From the IMG/VR virus record IMGVR_UViG_2832928787_000001, positions 1 to 64,000 of that record: a stretch of 64,000 bases of DNA; one strand, 5' to 3'. This document shows positions 30,381-64,000 of this stretch, in pieces. This DNA is from a virus (lineage: Duplodnaviria > Caudoviricetes). Both the position numbers and the translations under genes were made by a program. The stretch's first letter is position 1. Every line of letters starts with the position of its first letter. The notes below the pieces were generated by a model. It saw only the letters and a list, made by a program, of their open reading frames with translations, made no database searches and was not told the DNA's origin.

Positions 30381-30848
30381 TCAGTCCGGCTCGCGCATCG
30401 CATCGACCCGCTGCACCAGCTGATGCAACCGGGTTTCCGCCTGATGGACCACCACACGGAAATGATCCATTTCCGAACTGGTAATCCGCCCATCGGCCAG
30501 CATTTCGTGCAGCGCCTCGCCAACATCGCCCTGCCCCTGCCAGACCAGCGCAACCAGCTCCAGCACCGCCATGTCCGAGACCTCGACATCACGTTCCAAG
30601 CGCACGCAGACGTGCCCCTGACTGCGCGCCAGTGCATGCAGGATGCGCAGGTCTCCGGTGAACGACATCAGCTTGTCGGCCTCGACCAGCGTCAGGTGGT
30701 GGCTGTCTTTTTTCTGGTCGACCTTGCTGCACAGCACAGCCGGCGACATGGACCCGCCCGCCCGGGTGACGAAGCGCGGCGCCAGCGCATTTGCGCCCCC
30801 AGGGTGGTCATGGACGGTGGCATAAGCGGCATCAATTACGCTCATCAC
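30381..30848 (-). CDS. CII-like phage regulatory protein
   Basis: VHDHPGGANALA, HHLTL.EA, ADGRIT..E. Confidence 0.8.
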   Translation of the reverse strand: MMSVIDAAYATVHDHPGGANALAPRFVTRAGGSMSPAVLCSKVDQKKDSHHLTLVEADKLMSFTGDLRILHALARSQGHVCVRLERDVEVSDMAVLELVALVWQGQGDVGEALHEMLADGRITSSEMDHFRVVVHQAETRLHQLVQRVDAMREPD

Positions 30849-31137: not shown

Positions 31138-31252
31138 GGGGCCTCATAGACGTGTCATCACGCCAGCGGTGATGACATAGTTGTAAAAAGACCGAACGGA
31201 ACACGTCCGGCAAAAACTCCACGGGGGCAAAACGATCGTGGAGAGGGGGAGG

Positions 31253-31480
31253 TCAGCGACCAGCAGGGTTTCCGGGTTGCAACGATGGGTTGCCTTCATC
31301 GGCTTGGCACTGAAGACCTACCCATGCGGCCCAAGCATCTGGACGCAAGCGGACAATCCGCCCGACGGCCGAGTCCGGTATGTCGTCAGGCCATCCGTGA
31401 ACGCTGGGCGGCTTGATACCAATGGCCCTGGCTGTTCTAGATGGCCCTCCAAAATAAGAGAGGACAAATTGCTTTTTCAT
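31253..31480 (-). CDS. cro: Cro-like repressor
   Basis: YFGGPSRTARAIGIKPPSVHGW; divergent from cI; TATAAT just upstream of the ATG (leaderless). Confidence 0.85.
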   Translation of the reverse strand: MKKQFVLSYFGGPSRTARAIGIKPPSVHGWPDDIPDSAVGRIVRLRPDAWAAWVGLQCQADEGNPSLQPGNPAGR

Positions 31481-31486
31481 GAGGCA

Positions 31487-31551
31487 ATTATAGGCACACC
31501 TACTAGCCACGCACAAGGTATACCTATCGAACAGCCTGTTAGGCTCACCTA
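31487..31551. promoter_or_regulatory. OR region: three TAGG-N4-CCTA operators and PR
   Basis: taggcacaccta 31491, aaggtataccta 31515, taggctcaccta 31540; minus-strand ttgtgc-18-tataat. Confidence 0.8.
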
Positions 31552-31552
31552 C

Positions 31553-32257
31553 ATGACATTGGCTGAACGGGTTACCCTCGCACTGCACGAGGAAGGAAAA
31601 TCACAGACCGAGTTGGCGAAGGCCATCGGAGTACGGCCGCCATCAGTAAACGACTGGGTTTCCGGAAAGACCAAGACCATCAAGGGCGAGAATCTGCTGC
31701 GTGCCGCCAGCTACCTGCGCGTGCGGCCAGAGTGGTTATCCATGGGCCGGGGGCCAATGCGCCAGGAAGACCTGGGCACCCCCATCACAACCCCACTTCG
31801 CCCAGTAAAGTTGATCGACTCTGACGACGAACTGGATGACGGTGCATTTGCCGTGCCCAGGTACACATTGAAGGCCAGCGCAGGAAACGGCGCACCAGTA
31901 TTGGAAATCGACCAGAAAGGCCAATCCAACTACTGCCGGTACAACTGGGCAAACCGAAACGGCTTTCGTAGAGAAGACCTGTTCAGCATCGTCACAATTG
32001 GCGACAGCATGGAGCCGACCATCCCAGATGGCGCCAGCCTCATCGTGCATAAGAGTCAGGACATCGTGAATGGGAAGGTCCACGTCATTTGTCGCGGTGA
32101 CGAGTGTTTCGTGAAGCGCTTGTTCAAGCAGATGGATGGCTCGGTACTGATCAAGTCTGACAACCAGGCCAACTACAAAGACTCTGTTGCCAGACCTGAC
32201 GACGCTGACCCCCTATACGTTGTCGGTCACGTGGTGTCCGTCAGCTTCAACCTGTAG
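31553..32257 (+). CDS. cI: CI repressor (XRE HTH plus S24 peptidase)
   Basis: SQTELAKAIGV HTH, ASAG cleavage site, GDSMEP Ser and VKRL Lys. Confidence 0.93.
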   Translation: MTLAERVTLALHEEGKSQTELAKAIGVRPPSVNDWVSGKTKTIKGENLLRAASYLRVRPEWLSMGRGPMRQEDLGTPITTPLRPVKLIDSDDELDDGAFAVPRYTLKASAGNGAPVLEIDQKGQSNYCRYNWANRNGFRREDLFSIVTIGDSMEPTIPDGASLIVHKSQDIVNGKVHVICRGDECFVKRLFKQMDGSVLIKSDNQANYKDSVARPDDADPLYVVGHVVSVSFNL

Positions 32258-32274
32258 CCAACGCCCTCCCCACA

Positions 32275-32299
32275 AGAGCCCTGTTCACACAGGGCTTTT
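32275..32299 (+). terminator. cI terminator
   Basis: agccctgt-tcac-acagggct followed by T-run. Confidence 0.75.
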
Positions 32300-32337
32300 C
32301 TCATACCAGATTCCAGCAATTCTCCCCAAAGGCAAAT

Positions 32338-32388
32338 TAGGTTCACCTTCAAGTTTCGCTTGACCGGAACAGTAGGCGTGCCTATATT
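32338..32388 (+). promoter_or_regulatory. OL/PL-like promoter with two operators
   Basis: TTGACC(32360)-17-TATATT(32383); operators taggttcacctt 32338 and taggcgtgccta 32373. Confidence 0.8.
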
Positions 32389-32394
32389 TCACCT

Positions 32395-32707
32395 AACGCC
32401 ACGGCAACACACCGCCGACCGATCTCAGGAGCCCCCACGTGGGACCAGACAATTGAGCAGGATACGGATCGATAGCAGGCGGAGAGCGCCTGTCGTAGAC
32501 GGGGTCCCGCCGGCGCCCGAGAAGCCGAGCAAAACCCGCCGAGAGCAACAAGGCGGGCAGTCGGGGGACGAAGCGCACAGATGGCGCCGAGGACGAGCCC
32601 GACAATCGCCGCCCCGTGGCGAGTAACGGGAAAAGGAACGGCCTCGCAAGAGGCCGGTCACCAAAGCAGGCACACGCTGCATGCCATGCCCGCTTTGGCG
32701 ACATTTT
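32395..32707 (+). ncRNA. Candidate structured PL leader RNA (contains repeat copy A, 32535-32702)
   Basis: No credible ORF; successive hairpins, GCAA tetraloop and two possible pseudoknots. Confidence 0.55.
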
Positions 32708-32708
32708 C

Positions 32709-33500
32709 CTATTTGACTTGCGTCGCCAGTACGGCAACGACTTCTTGAGCTGCGCGCCTTTGTTCTGTGGTCAGGCGCCCGCAGTACAGATCGACATTGC
32801 CCTTGTCGCTGTCGTTCACCTTCGGATTGCCGGAGAACAGAATAAGCGCATACCAAGCGCAAGCTCTGACAGGGTTGTACGGAGCGCCCTGGGCACCAGT
32901 TGCAAGACTGTAAGCCGTATTTCGCTGCGCCTGGTAGTCACCGCCCTTGGCTTTTTTCTCCAGTGCCGCGAATGCTTCGGCACCATCGGCCAGTCGCTTC
33001 TTTTCTGCCTCGTCCGCTTCTTGCTCTGATTCAAGTACGGACATATCCGAAACCGGAATGAATTTCTCACCCTCAGGCGAAGAGCACAAAACAGCGCAAG
33101 AAGATTTTGATGTATAAATACCGGGCTTGAATCCGCCCCCCATATCAAAAGTGCAGACATGGCCGCTGGCCGTTCTCATGGCGTCGCCGGTTGTCGGGTC
33201 TCCTTTGACTTTCAACTCGACAGCGACCCCCTTATTCCAGCCATAGTCCGGCGTTTTTGGTAAAGCCGGGCCGGATTCAGCTTTGATGTATTCCAGATCA
33301 TTGGCACCGCTCGCAATATGGCGGCATTCTTTGGCAAATATCTGCAACGCTTTTTCCGCCGGATCGCCCATGGCAGAAAATGATTCACTTTTTTGATATG
33401 GCAAATCGGCGGATTTACTGCATCCAAGTAACGATGCCGCAACAAGAGAAACAGGAAGCAACCATTGCACACGTGTCTTCAGAGATATTTCTTTAGCCAT
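32709..33500 (-). CDS. Lipoprotein with C-terminal Sel1-like segment (moron)
   Basis: LLGC lipobox; GDYQAQRNTAY...ACAWY; own tttaca-16-TGaTAAAAT-type promoter. Confidence 0.75.
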   Translation of the reverse strand: MAKEISLKTRVQWLLPVSLVAASLLGCSKSADLPYQKSESFSAMGDPAEKALQIFAKECRHIASGANDLEYIKAESGPALPKTPDYGWNKGVAVELKVKGDPTTGDAMRTASGHVCTFDMGGGFKPGIYTSKSSCAVLCSSPEGEKFIPVSDMSVLESEQEADEAEKKRLADGAEAFAALEKKAKGGDYQAQRNTAYSLATGAQGAPYNPVRACAWYALILFSGNPKVNDSDKGNVDLYCGRLTTEQRRAAQEVVAVLATQVK

Positions 33501-33575
33501 GATTTCCCCAGGATGAGATAGCCTTCAGGCCATCATTTTATCACATCGGCATATCATGTAAAAACTGAGCGAATT

Positions 33576-33733
33576 CCCGCCGAGAGCAACAAGGCGGGCA
33601 GTCGGGGACGAAGCGCACCGAAGGCGCCAAGGACGAGCCCGACAATCGCCGCCCCGTGGCGAGTAACGGGAAGAGGAACGGCCTCGCAAGAGGCCGGTCA
33701 CCAAAGCTGAATCAGGTGGCTTTGGTGATACAC
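33576..33733 (+). repeat. Structured repeat copy B
   Basis: Near-identical to 32535-32667, then hairpin tcaccaaagc/gctttggtga. Confidence 0.95.
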
Positions 33734-33814
33734 AATGAAACACCTGCCCCTGCCCGGTTTGGCAGGACAGTCAAATCAGGCCAAAATGCCGTCATCATTC
33801 TTAGGAGACGCGGC

Positions 33815-34774
33815 ATGGCCCGGCACAGCAAGAACAGCGACAGTGCAATCTGGATCGGCGTATTTATCCTGGTCGTGGCCCCCATCGCCTTTTTCATCTG
33901 GCTTTATCAGCAGATCGGTGCATGGGGCATCATTGGCGTCGTAGGCATACTGGCGGCCCTCATTGCGACCGGATTCGCCGCTCACTTCTACAAGGAGAAA
34001 ACCGAAGCGGAAGCGCGGACGCAGCGCATCCAGCGTGACCTAGCCGAGATTGAACAGAAGCTGATCGAGGCCCGCCGACTGGGCACAGCACCATCTCCGC
34101 GTGCCATCCCTGAACAGCCCACGCTCAGCGACTTCGAGTGGGTCGGGGGCGGAGAAGCGGTCTCAGCCAACCTGCGGCTCCAGTATAAGGATGCGGCCGG
34201 CAACGTCACTGAGCGCACAGTTGAGGTCAAAGCCTTCACCGAACACCCGGCCGGCGGCATAGAAGCATTCTGCCACCTGCGCCAAAGCCGCCGCTCGTTC
34301 TACTACCACCGCATGCAGAAGGTCGTAGACCTGGACAGCGGCGAGGTCATCCACGAGCCGTGGGCCTGGCTGGATGCTCGCCGCAGGGCATCACCCGATT
34401 TCGCCCTGTCGGAAAACTTGTCCGCCATCTGGCCGGAACTGGAAGTGCTGGTCTATGTCTGCCGGGCAGACGGCCGCATGATGGCGCCTGAACGGGCGCT
34501 GGTTGTCAGCTATATGCAAAAGCGGAAACCTGAGCTATCAACCGTCTCCGTGGCAAAACTGGAAAAGGTACTGAAGGACGACGTAGCAAACCTGAGCCCC
34601 GCGCAATTCAAGCACTGTGTCGCCCAGTGCCGGCAACTGGATGAAGAAGTCCGGTCAGACCTGGTCAGCACGGCGGTAGCAGTTGTTGCGACACAAAGCA
34701 GTGTTGCCGAGGCAGAGGATGTGGCACTGGATTATCTGCATGAAAAATTGCTGGATCATGCTGAGCAGCCATAA
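33815..34774 (+). CDS. 2TM-WYL-TerB-like protein
   Basis: AGGAG RBS; two TM; YKD..GNVTERTV...AFCHLR..RRSF (WYL-like); LVYVCRADG...ER (TerB-like). Confidence 0.7.
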   Translation: MARHSKNSDSAIWIGVFILVVAPIAFFIWLYQQIGAWGIIGVVGILAALIATGFAAHFYKEKTEAEARTQRIQRDLAEIEQKLIEARRLGTAPSPRAIPEQPTLSDFEWVGGGEAVSANLRLQYKDAAGNVTERTVEVKAFTEHPAGGIEAFCHLRQSRRSFYYHRMQKVVDLDSGEVIHEPWAWLDARRRASPDFALSENLSAIWPELEVLVYVCRADGRMMAPERALVVSYMQKRKPELSTVSVAKLEKVLKDDVANLSPAQFKHCVAQCRQLDEEVRSDLVSTAVAVVATQSSVAEAEDVALDYLHEKLLDHAEQP

Positions 34775-34806
34775 ATCGCCCGAGGAACAGAACAAGCCCC
34801 GCTGCA

Positions 34807-34944
34807 GGCAGTCGGGGGACGAAGCGCACAGAAGGCGCCGAGGAAGAGCCCGACAATCGTCGGCCCCTGGCGAGTAACGGGCAAAGGAACGGCCTCGCAA
34901 GAGGCCGGTCACCAAAGCTGAACCAGGTGGCTTTGGTGATACAC
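34807..34944 (+). repeat. Structured repeat copy C
   Basis: Homologous to copies A and B from ggcagtcggggg to gctttggtgatacac. Confidence 0.95.
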
Positions 34945-35080
34945 TTAGCATTTTATTGGTAGACTTGCTCGCACCCAACAGTTTGCTAAATGGCAGCTTG
35001 TACAAAAAAATCAGGCAGGTTTGGGTCAGCAACAGCCCGTTGTGACCGGCTGCTACCGACCCGAAAGCAGACAGTCAAAT

Positions 35081-35141
35081 TGTTAACACCTGAGTTACGC
35101 CGCACCAAAAAGTGGCATCGGTTTTGAATGAATTGTTAGAT
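35081..35141 (-). mobile_element. Integron attC site 1
   Basis: Minus strand ATCTAAC aattc ATTCAA...GCGTAAC tcaggt GTTAACA; resembles aadA-type attC as recalled. Confidence 0.85.
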
Positions 35142-35930
35142 CACACCGAGCAGCCGTAGCACGCCTGCCCCTGCCAGCACAAAGCCGAGAAGCCCATATA
35201 ACCAATGCTCCTTCACAAGCTCCACGATGACAGAAGGATGAAAATGAATTCGATCTTGCCAAGGCGCCTGAATTGCGAGCGTACGGCTATGAGCACGGCC
35301 CGCGAGGTTGGCCATGACATCAACCTTTCGCAGAGTTGATTGATGCAGCTTTACAAACTCCCGGCTATCCCACGCCGCAGCTTCCGCTTTACCTGAGAGG
35401 AAATCTTGGTGGGTAATTTGGTTGAACTTCATGATCGACTCAAGCCGCGGATGGCCAGCGTAGCGAACACCGTAAATTGAGATCAAAACCCTAGATAGAT
35501 CCAGTTTCTTCTCGTCCTTGGTTTCATACGGAGCTCCACCTAGTACACGATGCCTATGCTCCAGCGCTTGGAACCCATAATTAATGTCTCTCATGCTCCA
35601 GTGCAGCCACGTACAATGCGTGTGGGTGGCTGCGAAGGCAAAAAACTCGTCAAGCATCTCGCGCTCAAGGCGATCATAGTGGCTTTCAATGTCCGCGAGA
35701 TCGACCTTCTGAATCTCCGCAATCTTGTGAATCGAGAAAGACCTAGTCTGACCAGAATCCAGCTGCCGGGCGGCGATGCTCGTGATGCGAGGGGTTCGGC
35801 CATCGACGCGATCGTAGAAGCTCTCGCATGAGTAGTGAATCACCAAGCAGTAATGGGCGTTCTTGAAGAGAACGTCGAGGGCTTCTGACGCCTTCTTTCT
35901 CTGCTTGTAGAGATCGAGGTATTTTCCCAT
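35136..35930 (-). CDS. Cassette gene: RNase H/3'-5' exonuclease-like protein with C-terminal TM
   Basis: IHYSCESF, ITSIA, EREMLDEFF, YGFQAL, LDLS; TAA stop lies inside R''; fold call tentative. Confidence 0.6.
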   Translation of the reverse strand: MGKYLDLYKQRKKASEALDVLFKNAHYCLVIHYSCESFYDRVDGRTPRITSIAARQLDSGQTRSFSIHKIAEIQKVDLADIESHYDRLEREMLDEFFAFAATHTHCTWLHWSMRDINYGFQALEHRHRVLGGAPYETKDEKKLDLSRVLISIYGVRYAGHPRLESIMKFNQITHQDFLSGKAEAAAWDSREFVKLHQSTLRKVDVMANLAGRAHSRTLAIQAPWQDRIHFHPSVIVELVKEHWLYGLLGFVLAGAGVLRLLGVI

Positions 35931-35935
35931 GTGTG

Positions 35936-35992
35936 ATCTAACGTTTGAGTTCAACGGACGCAAAGGTGGCCCGCTGGAACGAATGGTTATGT
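35936..35992 (-). mobile_element. Integron attC site 2
   Basis: Minus strand ACATAAC cattc GTTCCAGC...GTTGAAC tcaaac GTTAGAT. Confidence 0.88.
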
Positions 35993-36631
35993 ACCAAAAA
36001 ACTTTCCACCCAACGCAAAAGCGCCGGCCATGAGCACTGCGACGGCAGCCAGAACGCTCCATAGCTGAGTGAGTCTCAAACCACCGACTAGCTCCGCCAA
36101 CGTAAGCTCTGCAGGCCCCTTGGGCAGAGTTGATGTCTTCTTATCCGCAAGCATTTTTTGCTTCCAACTCGCAAGCACACCGTTGAACTCAGTCGTGCTG
36201 AGCGCAGCAGCTTCTGGTTTAACCCACTGTACATACCAATCATTGCCGGGTTCAAGCAATCCTTCGCTCTTTAGACCACTCTCTACGATGACCATTAACG
36301 GGTGGTTTCGGCTATAGGCCATGGCTGCCTCAATTTGGTTCCATGGCGTTGGTAGTTTTATATTAGAAAGTGACACCTCTTTCGAGCCACCGCGTTTCTC
36401 GATGCCGGAAGAAAAATACATACGTTCAAGGGCAATCACAACTGTGCCTGAGCACTCATCTAGAAGGTCGGACACGGTTTTAAGCGGTGCACCAGAACCA
36501 AACGTGTTTCTTCCAACAGTATAAGGAATCAACCCCTCGCTTCGAAGTCTGTCTTCAACTGCGCGGACGAAGGCTTCCTGCGAGTCTGTAGCTGTGCCAC
36601 CCACGCTAACAAAAACATTCAATTCATTCAT
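35987..36631 (-). CDS. Cassette gene: TIR-like domain protein with C-terminal TM
   Basis: NVFVS, ECSGTVVIAL, TPWNQIEAAMA (Glu), PLMVIVE; TAA stop inside R''. Confidence 0.7.
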   Translation of the reverse strand: MNELNVFVSVGGTATDSQEAFVRAVEDRLRSEGLIPYTVGRNTFGSGAPLKTVSDLLDECSGTVVIALERMYFSSGIEKRGGSKEVSLSNIKLPTPWNQIEAAMAYSRNHPLMVIVESGLKSEGLLEPGNDWYVQWVKPEAAALSTTEFNGVLASWKQKMLADKKTSTLPKGPAELTLAELVGGLRLTQLWSVLAAVAVLMAGAFALGGKFFGT

Positions 36632-36664
36632 GACAGGTCGTTCCGATTCATTGAATTGATTTAT

Positions 36665-36724
36665 ACCTAACAAACAAGATAAGCCGACCGCCGAAGCCGG
36701 GTCGGCTTGAGCGCCGGGTTAGAC
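36665..36724 (-). mobile_element. Integron attC site 3
   Basis: Minus strand GTCTAAC ccggc GCTCAAGC cgacc...ggtcg GCTTATC ttgttt GTTAGGT. Confidence 0.9.
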
Positions 36725-36793
36725 ATCATAAGATGCGACGGCAGCTCTCAGCCACGATGTGCCTTCGGGTATGTATTTCTTAATGTTGCTCAT
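36719..36793 (-). pseudogene. 24-aa ORF of a mini, probably internally deleted, cassette
   Basis: MSNIKKYIPEGTSWLRAAVASYDV; starts after GTTAGAG (36809-36803) and stops in R'' of attC3. Confidence 0.5.
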
Positions 36794-36906
36794 GCTCAAA
36801 GTCTCTAACTAGCTTTAGAAGGCACGCAACCAGCATGTTCAGTTCGCCTAAGACTGTATGAATTTTGGGTCAGTAGGCAAATTAGCTGTTTCGGCGTTTC
36901 GGTGTT

Positions 36907-36918
36907 TAGGCAAACCTA
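36907..36918. promoter_or_regulatory. Distal CI-type operator
   Basis: taggcaaaccta is a perfect TAGG-N4-CCTA. Confidence 0.55.
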
Positions 36919-37086
36919 AAAATTATGACCCCAGCTTTTGATGACGAATTTAGATCAATGTCTGAATGGCCACCATTGGCCGATAGCCGCCCCCGCTACC
37001 AAAACAGCCAAAGCCTCATCACACTTGCGTTTTATTGACATAGGCATAGCCAATTTATCACGACAAACACCAATCGACTACCCCCC

Positions 37087-37111
37087 GCCCAGCCCTGTGC
37101 TGGGCTTTTTT
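37087..37111 (+). terminator. Intrinsic terminator before the early-left genes
   Basis: gcccagc-cctgt-gctgggc plus T6. Confidence 0.75.
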
Positions 37112-37132
37112 CGCCTCCAAGGAGCACTGAAC

Positions 37133-37501
37133 ATGCGCATCGCAACTGAACAACTGGCCGACATCCGTGGCGGCCTGATGGTCGAGGAACTGACCGAGTC
37201 CCTGGCTGAAGTCGTCAACGCCGTCATCACCACCGGCAAGAAGGGCGCCGTGCAACTGAAGCTGGACATCAACCCCGCCAGCAAGGGCGACGCCGTGGTG
37301 ACGGTGACTGACGAGATCAAGAAGACCGTACCGCAGGAGAAGCGCACCGGCACGCTGATGTTCGCCACGCCGTCCGGCTCGCTCCAGCGGCAGGACCCGC
37401 GTCAGACCGATCTGCCCCTGGTCTCGACATCGGCCACGATGCCGACGCTGCAGTCCACTCCCACCGAATCCCCGTCGCTGCGCGTCGTCGGCGGCAACTG
37501 A
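37133..37501 (+). CDS. Conserved phage protein upstream of DUF2303 (YfdP-like)
   Basis: AAGGAG RBS; TGKKG..LKL.I.P and FATPSGSL.R.DPRQ. Confidence 0.75.
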   Translation: MRIATEQLADIRGGLMVEELTESLAEVVNAVITTGKKGAVQLKLDINPASKGDAVVTVTDEIKKTVPQEKRTGTLMFATPSGSLQRQDPRQTDLPLVSTSATMPTLQSTPTESPSLRVVGGN

Positions 37502-37528
37502 TTTCCCCACCCAACCGAAAGCCCCCCC

Positions 37529-38374
37529 ATGAACACCGAAAAGAACATTGTCGAATCGGCCATTCAGGCCGCAAGCAAGCCGTTTCTGATGGACATCAGC
37601 GGCACCCCGGTTCTGCTGATGCCCGATTGCAATGGTGGCTGGTCGCGCCAGGAACTGGACAAATACCGTACCGAGCCGCTGCGCAAGACTGGCGCAGTGG
37701 TCCTGCATCAGCTCGACAGCCTGCTGGCCTTCATCAAGGAGCACAAGGAATCCGGTACCCAACTGTTCGTCGATGCCGACTATGCGCAGGGCCGTGCGTC
37801 GTTCAAGGCCGTGCTCAACGGCCATACCGGCCCCCAGCCTGACTTCGGCGACTTCACGGCGCTGTACACCCCGATGAAGACGGTCGACTGGTCGAACTGG
37901 CTGGAAAGCAACGGCAAGAAGATGGACCAGGAAGAATTCGCCCGCTTCCTGCAGGACAACATTGCCAACATCGTCAGTCAGGATCCGGCCAATAGCAGCC
38001 GCCAGTACCCGGCCGCAGCCGACCTGCTGGAATTCGCCAGCAATCTGGAAATGACCAGCACCGTGCGCTTCCGCAGCAGCACCAAGGTGCAGAACGGCCA
38101 GGTGCAGTTTGAGTACGTCGAAGAGGGCGACAACAACACCAAAGGCCGTCTGCAGATGTTTGAGCGCTTCGGCCTCGGTCTGCAGCCGTTCGCAGGCGGT
38201 GACGCCTACTTCATCGAGGCGTTCCTGCGCTTCCGCATCGACCGCAACAGCGGTGAACTCAAGCTGTGGTACGACCTGAACCGCCCGGACAAGGCCCTGG
38301 AAAACGCCACAGAAAAGATGATCGAGCGCATCAAGGTCGAATCGGGCGTGCCGGTCTATTTCGGCAAGGCGTGA
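37529..38374 (+). CDS. DUF2303 / YfdQ-family protein
   Basis: AVLNGH, QEEFARFLQDN, LKLWYDL.RP, PVYFG. Confidence 0.82.
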   Translation: MNTEKNIVESAIQAASKPFLMDISGTPVLLMPDCNGGWSRQELDKYRTEPLRKTGAVVLHQLDSLLAFIKEHKESGTQLFVDADYAQGRASFKAVLNGHTGPQPDFGDFTALYTPMKTVDWSNWLESNGKKMDQEEFARFLQDNIANIVSQDPANSSRQYPAAADLLEFASNLEMTSTVRFRSSTKVQNGQVQFEYVEEGDNNTKGRLQMFERFGLGLQPFAGGDAYFIEAFLRFRIDRNSGELKLWYDLNRPDKALENATEKMIERIKVESGVPVYFGKA

Positions 38375-38704: not shown

Positions 38705-38720
38705 CCGCGTCTCCCATGCT

Positions 38721-38804
38721 CATGAGCAGCACCAAAGCACGACATGAGCAGGTCATGAGCGGCACATGAGCGGCACATGAGCATGAAATGAGCACCCCAT
38801 GAGC
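38721..38804 (+). repeat. CATGAGC direct repeats in 11-bp phase (centromere/operator-like)
   Basis: Copies at 38721, 38743, 38754, 38765, 38776, 38787 (AATGAGC) and 38798. Confidence 0.85.
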
Positions 38805-39167
38805 AACCCTGACACCTGGCAACAGCAGGTCGCCGGGCAGTTGCGCCAGCTCGCGGCGGAACAGGCTGGCCCGAGCAAGGCTGCCCGGTTCCGGGCGCTG
38901 TTCCCTGACATCGAGGACGCCATGCGCCGTGGCTGTAGCCAGCGCGAGCTGATCGCCACCCTGGCCGGCAGCGGACTGACGATGACCCTGGACGAGCTGC
39001 GCAACGCCCTGTACCGCGAACGCAAACGACGGAAAGCGAGGCCGCCCGATGCGGCAACACATCCCCCGCCGCGACTGGCGCCACCGCCGGCCACCCCGGC
39101 TGCACCGGGTGCACCACCCGGCAGCTTTGACTGGCAACGCCACCGCGACAAGAAACCCAACTGGTAA
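38799..39167 (+). CDS. StbA/TraK-like DNA-binding protein
   Basis: KAARFRALFPDIE.A...G.S...I..L...GL...L..ALYR.R. Confidence 0.65.
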   Translation: MSNPDTWQQQVAGQLRQLAAEQAGPSKAARFRALFPDIEDAMRRGCSQRELIATLAGSGLTMTLDELRNALYRERKRRKARPPDAATHPPPRLAPPPATPAAPGAPPGSFDWQRHRDKKPNW

Positions 39168-41448: not shown

Positions 41449-41618
41449 TCCTGACCGCTGACCAGGTCCGCCCCGGACCGCACTGGGTGCGGTTGAGCCC
41501 TGCGTCAGGGTGGGTGCTGATGGTCATAGAAAACCCATCAGCATTGCTGTACGGGCTGGCTGGCGCCGATTTCTGCCCAATCGCGATGCCTACTGACGCC
41601 AATGGAGATTTGCAATGA
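41445..41618 (+). CDS. Small hypothetical protein
   Basis: ATGA overlaps at both ends. Confidence 0.45.
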   Translation: MILTADQVRPGPHWVRLSPASGWVLMVIENPSALLYGLAGADFCPIAMPTDANGDLQ

Positions 41619-41956
41619 CTGATCCTGCAGACCTTGCCGGCTGCCAGTTCGGCCGGCTGACTGTATCCGGTCCGTCAGATGTCAGGATATTCCGCGGGCG
41701 CACCGTTCTCTGCCGGTGTCGCTGCGGCGGTTCTATCTGCGTCCGTCCCGGTGACCTGCGCAAAGGAAAGGTGAAGTCCTGCGGCTGCTACCGGCGCGAG
41801 CTGGCGCTTGCAGCGCTTCAGCGGGCGAACCAGCCCGAGGCCAGGTCAAGGCAACTGGTCTCGGCCAACAGGACGCGGCATCGAAAACAGATTTTGGCGC
41901 TGGGGTCCGTTACCACCACCCGCCAATACATCGACGGTCAACCTGCCCCGCTATGA
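41615..41956 (+). CDS. N-terminal domain typical of HNH/AP2 homing endonucleases, nuclease part absent
   Basis: DLAGCQFGRLTV, CRCRCG, KSCGC. Confidence 0.6.
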   Translation: MTDPADLAGCQFGRLTVSGPSDVRIFRGRTVLCRCRCGGSICVRPGDLRKGKVKSCGCYRRELALAALQRANQPEARSRQLVSANRTRHRKQILALGSVTTTRQYIDGQPAPL

Positions 41957-46587: not shown

Positions 46588-46839
46588 ATGACAACCGACG
46601 AAATCGTGCCATTTGACGAGCTGGCAACAGTTTCCGGCTACAAACGACCGCGCTGCATAAGAGACTGGCTGGACGCCAACAGAATCCGCTACCTGCAGAA
46701 CGCCAGCGGCAGACCAATTGTTGCCCGGTCCACGTTTATGCAAGCACTGGGTGTCAAACCAATCACCATTGACCCCACGCCGTTACGCGGAATCAATACC
46801 GCCAACCTTGACCATCTCCACGCGCAGAAAAGAAAATGA
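46588..46839 (+). CDS. Excisionase (DUF4224-like)
   Basis: ELATVSGYKR...WL..N.I...GRPIV; overlaps the integrase start. Confidence 0.75.
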   Translation: MTTDEIVPFDELATVSGYKRPRCIRDWLDANRIRYLQNASGRPIVARSTFMQALGVKPITIDPTPLRGINTANLDHLHAQKRK

Positions 46840-47924
46840 CTCGCCCCAGAAAGAAAAATCGCGATCTCCCACCGCGCATGTACCTGAAGCATGGCGCCTA
46901 TTACTACGTCACCCCAGCAAAGAAATGGATACGTCTATCCAGCAATCTAGAGGAGGCCAAGAGAAAGTGGGTCGAACTGGAAGCGCCATGCATGATGCCG
47001 TCGCAAGGCATGCTGGCGTTATTAAATCGCTATTCTGTCGAGGTGCTGGCAAATAAATCCCCCAAGACCAGACAATTGCAGGAACCGCAAATGAAGCCAC
47101 TTGAAGCTGCGTTTGGCGATATGCGACCGGATGAAGTTAGACCGGTACACATTGCCCAATATCTCGATTACAGAGCAAGCAAAGACGCCCCGGTCGCGGG
47201 AAACCGGGAAAAGCAGTTACTGTCTCACGTTTTCACCATGGCAATGCGCTGAGGTATCGTAGACACCAATCCGTGCAAAGGCGTAACCCGGAACAAGGAA
47301 GTGCCGCGCACCCGATATGTCTCCGACCAGGAACTGGGCGACTTTATACAGTTCGCAAGAGACCTGAAAGTGGGGATGCTGAAAATCCGGGTCGATGATG
47401 ACGGGAATGTACTGATGCCACAGCGAACGGCGAAGCGCTATACACGGCCACTTGCAAGTGGGCAGGTGGTTTCCAGCGTGCTGGACATTGCCTATCACAC
47501 TGCCCAGCGCCGCCAGGATGTCCTGGCGCTTACTCTCGATGACATCACTGATGCAGGCATACTGTTCCGGCAGCGGAAAACGCAGGATACCGCGCCGGTC
47601 AAAGTCCTGGTCAGCTGGAAGCCGGGCTTGCGCGAGGCCGTCAGGGTCGCCATGACCCTACCCCGCCGAGCCGGGTTCCTGTTCGAGACCCGCGGGCATC
47701 CCTATACCGACGACGGGTTCAGTTCCCTGTTCCAGCGAATCATGCGCACCTGGGGTTTACTGGGCCATGAGCGGTTCACGGTTCACGATCTGCGCGCCAA
47801 GGGCGCAACCGACCTACTCGATCAGGGGGCTCAGGCAATAGACACTACGGGGCACGCCTCGGACAGCATCCTGAGGAGGGTCTATGACCGGCGCAGAACG
47901 CGCCGAGGGACGGCTGTGAAGTGA
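46836..47924 (+). pseudogene. int: Tyrosine integrase interrupted by one in-frame TGA (47250-47252)
   Basis: AMR*GIVDTNPC reads through in frame to TAQR, HDLRAK, GH and VYDR. Confidence 0.88.
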
Positions 47925-63999: not shown

Positions 64000-64000
64000 G

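Follow-up and report, generated by a model that had tools for sequence, protein, structure and literature searches.

We analysed three direct repeats that lie beside the cI repressor gene of a lambdoid prophage, at positions 32535 to 34944 of a 64,000-nt stretch of DNA (the window) comprising positions 1 to 64,000 of IMG/VR record IMGVR_UViG_2832928787_000001; the source record, referred to here as G000, is an 88,758-nt (88.7-kb) provirus record. The initial annotation of the window, made from its letters without database searches, had read the repeats as structured units that alternate with unrelated cargo, and had proposed an undescribed gene-cassette system. The repeat is not a free-standing unit; it is the 3' domain (~150-190 nt, six helices, H1 to H6) of a ~310-nt structured leader RNA. 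This supports the earlier view of the repeat as part of a leader RNA, with the first copy being the tail of the stretch that follows the early-left promoter, PL. The features of the immunity region and of the genes beyond it are listed below in their order along the window.

30381-30848, minus strand: cII, identified by family scans.
31253-31480, minus strand: cro-like gene, 75 aa (Pfam P22_Cro, E 5.7e-8).
31486-31552, no strand: OR region, with three operator-like sites of the TAGG-N4-CCTA type (31491, 31517 and 31540) between cro and cI.
31554-32257, plus strand: cI repressor, helix-turn-helix (HTH) plus S24 peptidase (Pfam HTH_3 and Peptidase_S24; phrog_4).
32337-32388, plus strand: region of the early-left promoter PL, TTGACC-17-TATATT at 32360-32388 (promoter scan, 10/12).
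32395-32513, plus strand: 5' domain of the leader RNA, in single copy, the most conserved part across relatives.
32514-32705, plus strand: copy A, the leader 3' domain in its native place (starting at 32514 or, more narrowly, 32535), with H1 to H6 and a terminal stem with a long private loop, then a U-rich run.
32709-33500, minus strand: cargo 1, a lipoprotein gene (phrog_5882; GC ~51-53%), absent from the closest relative, G001.
33562-33737, plus strand: copy B of the leader 3' domain, with clear homology from 33576.
33815-34774, plus strand: cargo 2, the gene for a protein with two transmembrane (TM) stretches and a WYL domain match; in G001 it directly follows the single leader.
34776-34948, plus strand: copy C of the leader 3' domain, the most diverged (92%), with H1 damaged.
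35136-36631, minus strand: cargo 3, two genes (phrog_8766, 308 aa; 214 aa, no family), GC 48-53%.
36938-38374, plus strand: first conserved early-left genes (phrog_204 and DUF2303/phrog_210).

The three plus-strand copies are 84-96% identical and are the sole strong copies in the 88,758-nt record. A repeat search found them as a 130-nt family at 32564-32693 (84%), 33604-33733 (the reference) and 34815-34944 (93%), and identified 32535-32566 and 33576-33607 as an exact 32-nt repeat. In a BLAST comparison with the whole record, copy B returned three matches, all at the places of A, B and C, with 96% identity over 132 nt for A (E 5e-58) and 92% over 140 nt for C (E 2e-54), and a covariance model scored the three copies at 176-194 bits. 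Such a three-copy match is far beyond chance, and the earlier claim of three direct copies is borne out by all three approaches.

The boundaries given previously for the copies were roughly right, with two corrections. In a three-way alignment, the homology of copy C starts at 34776, immediately past the TM gene stop codon, and that of copy B reaches weakly back to ~33562. Because of these earlier starts, B and C begin at nearly the same position of A (within ~8 nt, 32514-32522), and their 3' ends are the same base, just past the terminal hairpin. Both lack the 5' 120-140 nt of the leader. Copy C has a 12-nt deletion that takes the loop of the first hairpin, H1, which A and B retain.

The leader begins next to cI, whose true start is at 31554 rather than 31238, since HTH_3 and Peptidase_S24 span only residues 106-336 of the longer open reading frame (ORF). 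Two operator-like sites lie at the promoter downstream of cI (32337-32348 and 32373-32384), and a 19-nt stretch in its spacer is 89% complementary to an OR site. Since the spacer bears the OR operator motif and a second site lies at 32337, we identify 32360-32388 as the repressor-controlled early-left promoter. Judging by this promoter alone, transcription would start near 32395. The region from there to ~32705 is a GC-rich non-coding stretch, of which copy A forms the final 170-190 nt.

The leader in related prophages and public contigs

The leader was found in only three IMG/VR records, and three records were readable as sequence beside the window's own. The closest relative, G001 (a 23.5-kb record), is 94-97% identical to the window over 13.3 kb and over 1.2 kb of replication and structural genes. 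It has the leader once, at 95% identity (also the figure for the 5' domain alone), with the TM gene orthologue directly after it; the lipoprotein gene and copy C are absent. Its cI differs from that of the window, as do the operators at OR and at the leader promoter, and this immunity swap ends at 32383, the leader start. The slot after its TM gene, which in the window contains copy C and the two minus-strand genes, is occupied by a gene of 38-45% GC (1872-3872 of L006) that encodes a 666-aa NTPase-like protein with sub-threshold STAND/AAA matches. A and B differ at five internal sites; G001 agrees with A at three of these and with B at two, and it has the terminal loop of B, a pattern that is undecisive for the direction of change.

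The second relative, a 63-kb provirus (G002), is otherwise unrelated: near its leader, only the leader is common to it and the first prophage of the window's record. The 5' domain is ~95% identical; the 3' domain has diverged and shows compensatory changes. H5 of G002 is followed by 380 nt of inserted sequence (11672-12091 of L021), flanked by a 20-nt inverted repeat (95% complementary). On the opposite strand of the insert is a hydrophobic ORF of 28 aa with a terminator-like hairpin of its own; this ORF may encode a small toxin-like product and would be read antisense to the PL transcript. Behind the insert lies a partial second copy of the module, consisting of H5 and H6 (42 bits). From its sequence, we read G002 as an independent second case of leader duplication.

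The window's record also contains a second prophage, beyond base 64000 (13248-14432 of L023, which is 77248-78432 of G000), with its own cI, two terminators, a promoter and a leader that we call type 2. This prophage is 97% identical to G002 just downstream of the leader; nonetheless, the leader body of G002 is of the window's type. The type 2 leader (~14152-14432 of L023; 35 bits) has only its first ~25 nt and its last two hairpins in common with the leader of the window, and is followed by a 98-aa ORF that is absent from G002. Every leader type, and the partial copy of G002 too, keeps H5 and H6.

Wider searches added no further members. BLAST of the module and of the full leader against 50,697 phage records gave no match other than a 34-nt chance match (E 0.3). 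Four exact patterns from the 3' and 5' domains retrieved only G001 from IMG/VR, with G002 also retrieved by two of them; a pattern for the terminal hairpin pointed to two more IMG/VR loci, which we rejected as chance matches in unrelated low-GC sequence where the covariance model found nothing. Among JGI metagenome records, a first pattern had no match and a second had eight, all of them chance occurrences of the 21-nt pattern itself alone. The leader pattern had no match in GTDB genomes, in which the primase protein also had no relatives, and a search of IMG/VR with the cII protein found only G001.

Part of the region 32250-35150 was found in 20 public runs from 13 studies, and the leader occurs in runs from wetland, wastewater, digester, biofilm and soil. 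We compared contigs of four of these runs (X1, X2, X7 and X12) with the window at 88% likeness; contig cover was absent, for example, at 34927-35200 in X2 and X7 and from 34321 onward in X12. In three of the four runs (X1, X2 and X7), the leader 5' domain had the highest summed contig depth. These depths, given below, are sums over all contigs rather than copy numbers, and the run that best covers the region may be the source of the window itself.

X1: leader bins (32402-32704) 441-940; most cargo bins 114-302.
X2: leader bins (32402-32704) 470-662; most cargo bins 52-190.
X7: leader bins (32402-32704) 73-182; most cargo bins 7-48.

In all four runs, the leader is joined to varied upstream or downstream sequences. 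At least four different sequences are joined on the upstream side, at 32391-32400, one of which is the promoter of G001 (X2 and X12), and at least four different long continuations start downstream at 32655-32667, within the terminal hairpin, one of them with a variant hairpin followed by a T run. The arrangement seen in the window is itself bridged by contigs from A to the lipoprotein gene (X1, X2, X7 and X12), from the start of the lipoprotein gene to B (X12), from B to the TM gene (X2 and X7), and from C to its downstream flank (X1). In X1 and X12, contigs show the lipoprotein gene between two stretches of module sequence. Lastly, contigs of X2 and X7, two of the four runs, link 34776/34779 back to 32514/32517. 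In this joint, an A-like module without the deletion comes straight after the TM gene stop codon, and from its sequence we take the joint to be the copy-C junction in better condition.

RNA structure and strand

All three copies fold better than shuffled sequences (z -4.2 for A, -4.7 for B and -3.7 for C), as does the full leader (z -3.9); the type 2 leader is unremarkable in this respect (z -1.0). We set six helices on the alignment, built a covariance model of 165 positions from it, and realigned the seven matches to this model. In the resulting alignment, 95.3% of cells pair, versus 35-44% with slid partners, and 15 pairs are changed on both sides, versus 1-2 with slid partners. None of 500 shuffles reached the observed values, which are inflated because the alignment is model-fitted, four of the seven rows are near-identical, and the upstream halves of two rows are weakly aligned. 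The changes that we trust are two G-C to A-U replacements in H2 and a re-built 7-bp H5 in G002, which are the clear compensatory ones, a C-G to G-C replacement in H4 of copy C, and a G-C to G.U change in H6 of G002b and of the type 2 leader. H5 and H6 are GC-rich hairpins in every copy, and H2 to H6 are intact in all three copies of the window, with only H1 of C damaged. Insertions or deletions of 1 nt and 2 nt between G002 and the window weigh against a conserved reading frame.

Two more specific structural claims had been made. The pairing of the terminal stem is indeed kept in A, with a longer and different loop and a single A.C mismatch. A pseudoknot between the loop of H4 and a downstream ACGGG can be drawn, but the proposal that it is a covarying helix is not supported: none of its pairs is changed on both sides, and its percentage of pairing is equalled or exceeded in 117 of 500 shuffles. 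Searches for known elements were negative. No Rfam 15 family matched the window at the gathering threshold, and the three leader regions gave only chance-level scores (E 0.2-10). The boxA consensus has no match in the leader and two in the whole window, versus 1.7 expected.

The opposite strand also folds better than shuffles (z -4.9). Nonetheless, the plus-strand RNA is favoured by conserved G.U pairs (for example, five of five rows in H4), which would be A.C on the other strand, and by the promoter. These G.U pairs argue against the possibility that the repeat travels with accessory genes as an insulator, whose two GC-rich minus-strand hairpins and pyrimidine- or U-rich run stop convergent transcription of the cargo before it runs antisense into PL and cI. 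A terminator scan does flag the minus strand of H5, with a T/C-rich tail, in all three copies (32656-32639, 33696-33679 and 34907-34890), and A lies 4-7 nt past the stop codon of the minus-strand lipoprotein gene and C ~190 nt past the minus-strand two-gene block. However, no gene converges on B; the T-rich tail is broken by C residues, absent from the type 2 leader and weak in G002; and the scan gave 16 sites versus 7.2 expected, such that single matches are weak evidence. We consider a terminator cassette very improbable as an account of the repeats, although termination of convergent cargo genes by the minus strand of A and C may be a by-product of the leader.

The condition of the helices also bears on whether the extra copies have any role. 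They could be neutral debris, left over from one or two illegitimate or unequal recombination events. The closest relative has a single copy, C is decaying (the deletion of the H1 loop, 92% identity), and so few records have the leader, all of which such a history would accommodate; it is less easily reconciled with intact H2 to H6 in all three copies, a compensatory G-C for C-G in H4 of C, an independent duplication in G002, and a junction that recurs in other runs. Hence, we regard this possibility as unlikely.

Cargo between the copies

Accessory blocks 1 and 3 have a GC content of 47-53%, versus 60-65% for the backbone. The initial description of the cargo as a lipoprotein gene and a membrane gene with a WYL domain stood up to domain and family searches. 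The lipoprotein has a signal peptide with an LLGC lipobox, and both hydrophobic stretches of the TM-WYL protein are N-terminal. The TerB domain also ascribed to the latter was unseen on the protein itself and comes solely from a precomputed annotation on a homologue with 36% identity; six homologues were found, one of them a 96% cluster. These accessory genes are probably defence or exclusion genes. Lambdoid prophages carry accessory genes, or morons, in the immunity region, rexAB and sieB being examples, and the cargo here resembles them in being low in GC, apparently self-promoted and inserted beside cI and PL. The lipoprotein block (51-53% GC) is absent from G001, and the two-gene block (48-53% GC) is replaced there. 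Classical morons are not known to lie between copies of a leader RNA domain; our literature searches were aimed at the PeSL and put elements discussed below.

Other parts of the earlier account of the cargo did not hold. The "attC array" placed after copy C could not be found: there is no repeat family at 34940-37000, and pairs resembling attC core sites are at chance level (2 versus 0.67 +/- 1.16 for shuffled sequence; at least 2 were present in 55 of 200 shuffles). The promoters ascribed to the cargo genes are consensus matches only (4 versus 3.1 expected in the region). No promoter-like site falls inside any copy; those outside are at 32360-32388 and 33759-33787, and another at 33562-33535 on the minus strand straddles the weak 5' fringe of copy B. 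By contrast, the statement that no recombinase is adjacent was correct. The nearest tyrosine recombinase match, at 47475-47891, is 12.5 kb away, and PF00589 matches only there and at 88183-88659, these being the two prophage integrases. No phage single-strand-annealing recombinase was recognised among 10 proteins of the early-left operon compared with PHROGs.

Integron gene cassettes with attC sites offer a further comparison. Both are arrays of structured repeats that alternate with unrelated cargo that is promoter-poor or has promoters of its own, but there is no integrase here beyond those of the two prophages (47.5 kb and 88.2 kb), no attC-like core site above chance, and the leader repeats, unlike attC sites, are 84-96% identical.

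Proposed recombination at a shared leader sequence

Since this leader family is common to heteroimmune and otherwise unrelated prophages, it forms a conserved linker where the immunity module meets the early-left operon. With immunity genes on its left and accessory genes on its right, homologous recombination is to be expected between the leaders of co-infecting or co-resident phages; the record of the window, with its two leader-bearing prophages, is itself an example of co-residence. We propose that accessory genes are stacked and deleted when leader copies of heteroimmune phages recombine, in the manner of the promoter-early stem-loop (PeSL) cassettes of T4-type phages, and we put the probability of this explanation at roughly 0.55.

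As we infer its mechanism and direction, the leader would be transcribed from the cI-controlled early-left promoter, and the recombining copies would reside either in co-infecting or co-resident phages or, as direct repeats, in one genome. The enzyme would be host RecA or a phage recombinase, neither of them dedicated to the leader, and each accessory block would come to be bounded by the leader 3' domain. Recombination of A with B would delete the lipoprotein block and leave a single copy, as in G001; conversely, integration of a circle of module plus cargo would build the array. Judging from its position alone, the leader itself may influence, in cis, how the early-left transcript is elongated or terminated.

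This proposal is supported by the presence/absence polymorphism of the accessory genes, the clean single copy in a 95% identical relative, and the different flanks in other samples. The cargo bounded by the repeats is variable, as had been anticipated: the lipoprotein gene is absent from G001, which has other cargo after the TM gene, and G002 has its own insert. The extension of this observation to a dedicated new cassette system is not established, and shuffling at the sequence of a conserved regulatory RNA fits the evidence.

PeSL cassettes number ~50 per genome in T4-type phages and comprise a strong sigma-70 promoter and a terminator; RB49 and phi1 provide a case in which one phage has a gene flanked by two PeSL copies and its near-twin has a single copy (PMC2839356, Arbiol et al. 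2010). The arrangement of A, lipoprotein gene and B in the window and the single copy in G001 form just such a pair, so the comparison to PeSL repeats made in the initial annotation fits the pattern of presence and absence. Both are conserved regulatory sequences of ~100-170 bp with stable stem-loops that flank non-essential, variable genes, and both are explained by homologous recombination between copies without a dedicated recombinase. They differ in that the leader module has no promoter of its own, being a piece of one long PL leader RNA, and is present in one to three copies in one region of a temperate lambdoid prophage, whereas PeSL cassettes occupy the hyperplastic regions of lytic T4-type phages, where mini-circles are detectable.

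Several observations weigh against recombination as we propose it. No recombination product, such as a circle or a deletion in the population, was seen directly, and contigs cannot reveal rare forms. The shared boundaries of B and C and the recurring junction between TM gene and module are more regular than independent accidents; this regularity fits equally one ancestral duplication spread by recombination, or a functionally defined unit. The duplication in G002 has another boundary, with a 20-nt inverted repeat around it, so not all events look alike. The joints in public contigs were found at 88% likeness, their sides being 32 and 42 letters long, and likeness below 95 may mean other organisms or repeats. 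Few records were read as sequence, and with four of the seven aligned copies near-identical, the covariation counts are inflated. Finally, the leader transcript is a prediction.

The regularity of the junctions is among the arguments for a true cassette system, in which the 3' domain would serve both as portable homology for the capture of exclusion or defence genes and as a putative element that renews antitermination, or relieves polarity, after each insert. The 5' boundaries of B and C nearly coincide (32514-32522 of A) and their 3' ends are identical, the junction of TM gene and module recurs in two of four runs, the lipoprotein gene is module-flanked on both sides in contigs of X1 and X12, H5 and H6 are retained in all leader types and in the partial copy of G002, and the helices of B and C are intact except for H1 of C. 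If the module had such a dual purpose, selection would keep a copy after every cargo. However, G001 manages with one copy, and its cargo after the TM gene has no module; B and C lack the 5' domain, which is the most conserved part; the junction in G002 differs; the PR side, with its two terminator-like hairpins after cro, has no second copy; and antitermination, like the docking reaction once proposed for the module, is itself putative. The outcome for a one-off duplication, the condition under which the cassette system was to be abandoned, is mixed: the starts of B and C within ~8 nt of each other and the junction shared by two runs speak against it, whereas the single copy in the closest relative and the different junction in G002 speak for it. 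We consider a true cassette system distinctly unlikely. A related version, in which the last hairpins of a widespread but undescribed PL leader RNA are both a portable homology arm, through which temperate phages trade defence genes without a dedicated recombinase, and an RNA unit that sustains the early-left transcript or insulates it from convergent cargo transcription beyond each insert, together forming a self-renewing cassette system, seems to us more doubtful still.

The position of the leader also invites comparison with known antitermination elements. In lambda, nutL, the N antitermination site, lies between PL and the first early-left gene and consists of boxA and a short boxB hairpin. 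The leader has the same position and is likewise conserved between heteroimmune phages, such that immunity swaps end there. It differs in having no boxA-like match, in being far larger, and in not being followed by a small arginine-rich first gene; the first genes after it encode the lipoprotein and the TM-WYL protein, and an N-like first gene is absent. Phage HK022 has two similar put RNAs of ~70 nt, each with two stem-loops, putL after PL and putR after PR, which render RNA polymerase resistant to terminators with no help from proteins (PMC9378689). The leader resembles putL as a predicted cis-acting structured RNA just after PL, in a lambdoid phage without an obvious N-like gene directly after it. 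The differences are the size of the leader (~310 nt), the six helices of its module, and the lack of a PR-side copy by the covariance model, which found no minus-strand match in the PR operon of the window and a sole weak one in G001, on the wrong strand (E 0.013).

On the PR side, two terminator-like hairpins with T runs lie right after cro and before the next genes of the PR operon (31190-31245, minus strand), in a region that is 99% identical in G001. These hairpins imply that rightward delayed-early expression needs readthrough, on a side that has no leader-like element.

If recombination at the leader is the correct explanation, the PeSL principle, by which conserved regulatory sequences are hot spots for the safe exchange of accessory genes, would extend from lytic T4-type phages to temperate lambdoid prophages, and would apply beside cI and PL, where exclusion and defence genes accumulate. 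The ~310-nt leader, a conserved structured RNA with no Rfam family, appears to represent an undescribed leader RNA family, and an effect on the early-left transcript could add a new kind of control element to those known for phage transcription.

Three further features of the first prophage were recorded outside the repeat region. Its integrase is encoded by two consecutive ORFs (46836-47252 and 47301-47924), both phrog_1, and may be split or frameshifted. In the early-left region, the repeat search found CATGAGC-type repeats that recur every 11 nt at 38720-38829. At 41615-41956 lies the gene for a Cys-rich, basic protein of 113 aa (phrog_374), the N-terminal part of which is HNH-endonuclease-like, and the DNA of this gene is 94.6% identical in the otherwise unrelated G002.

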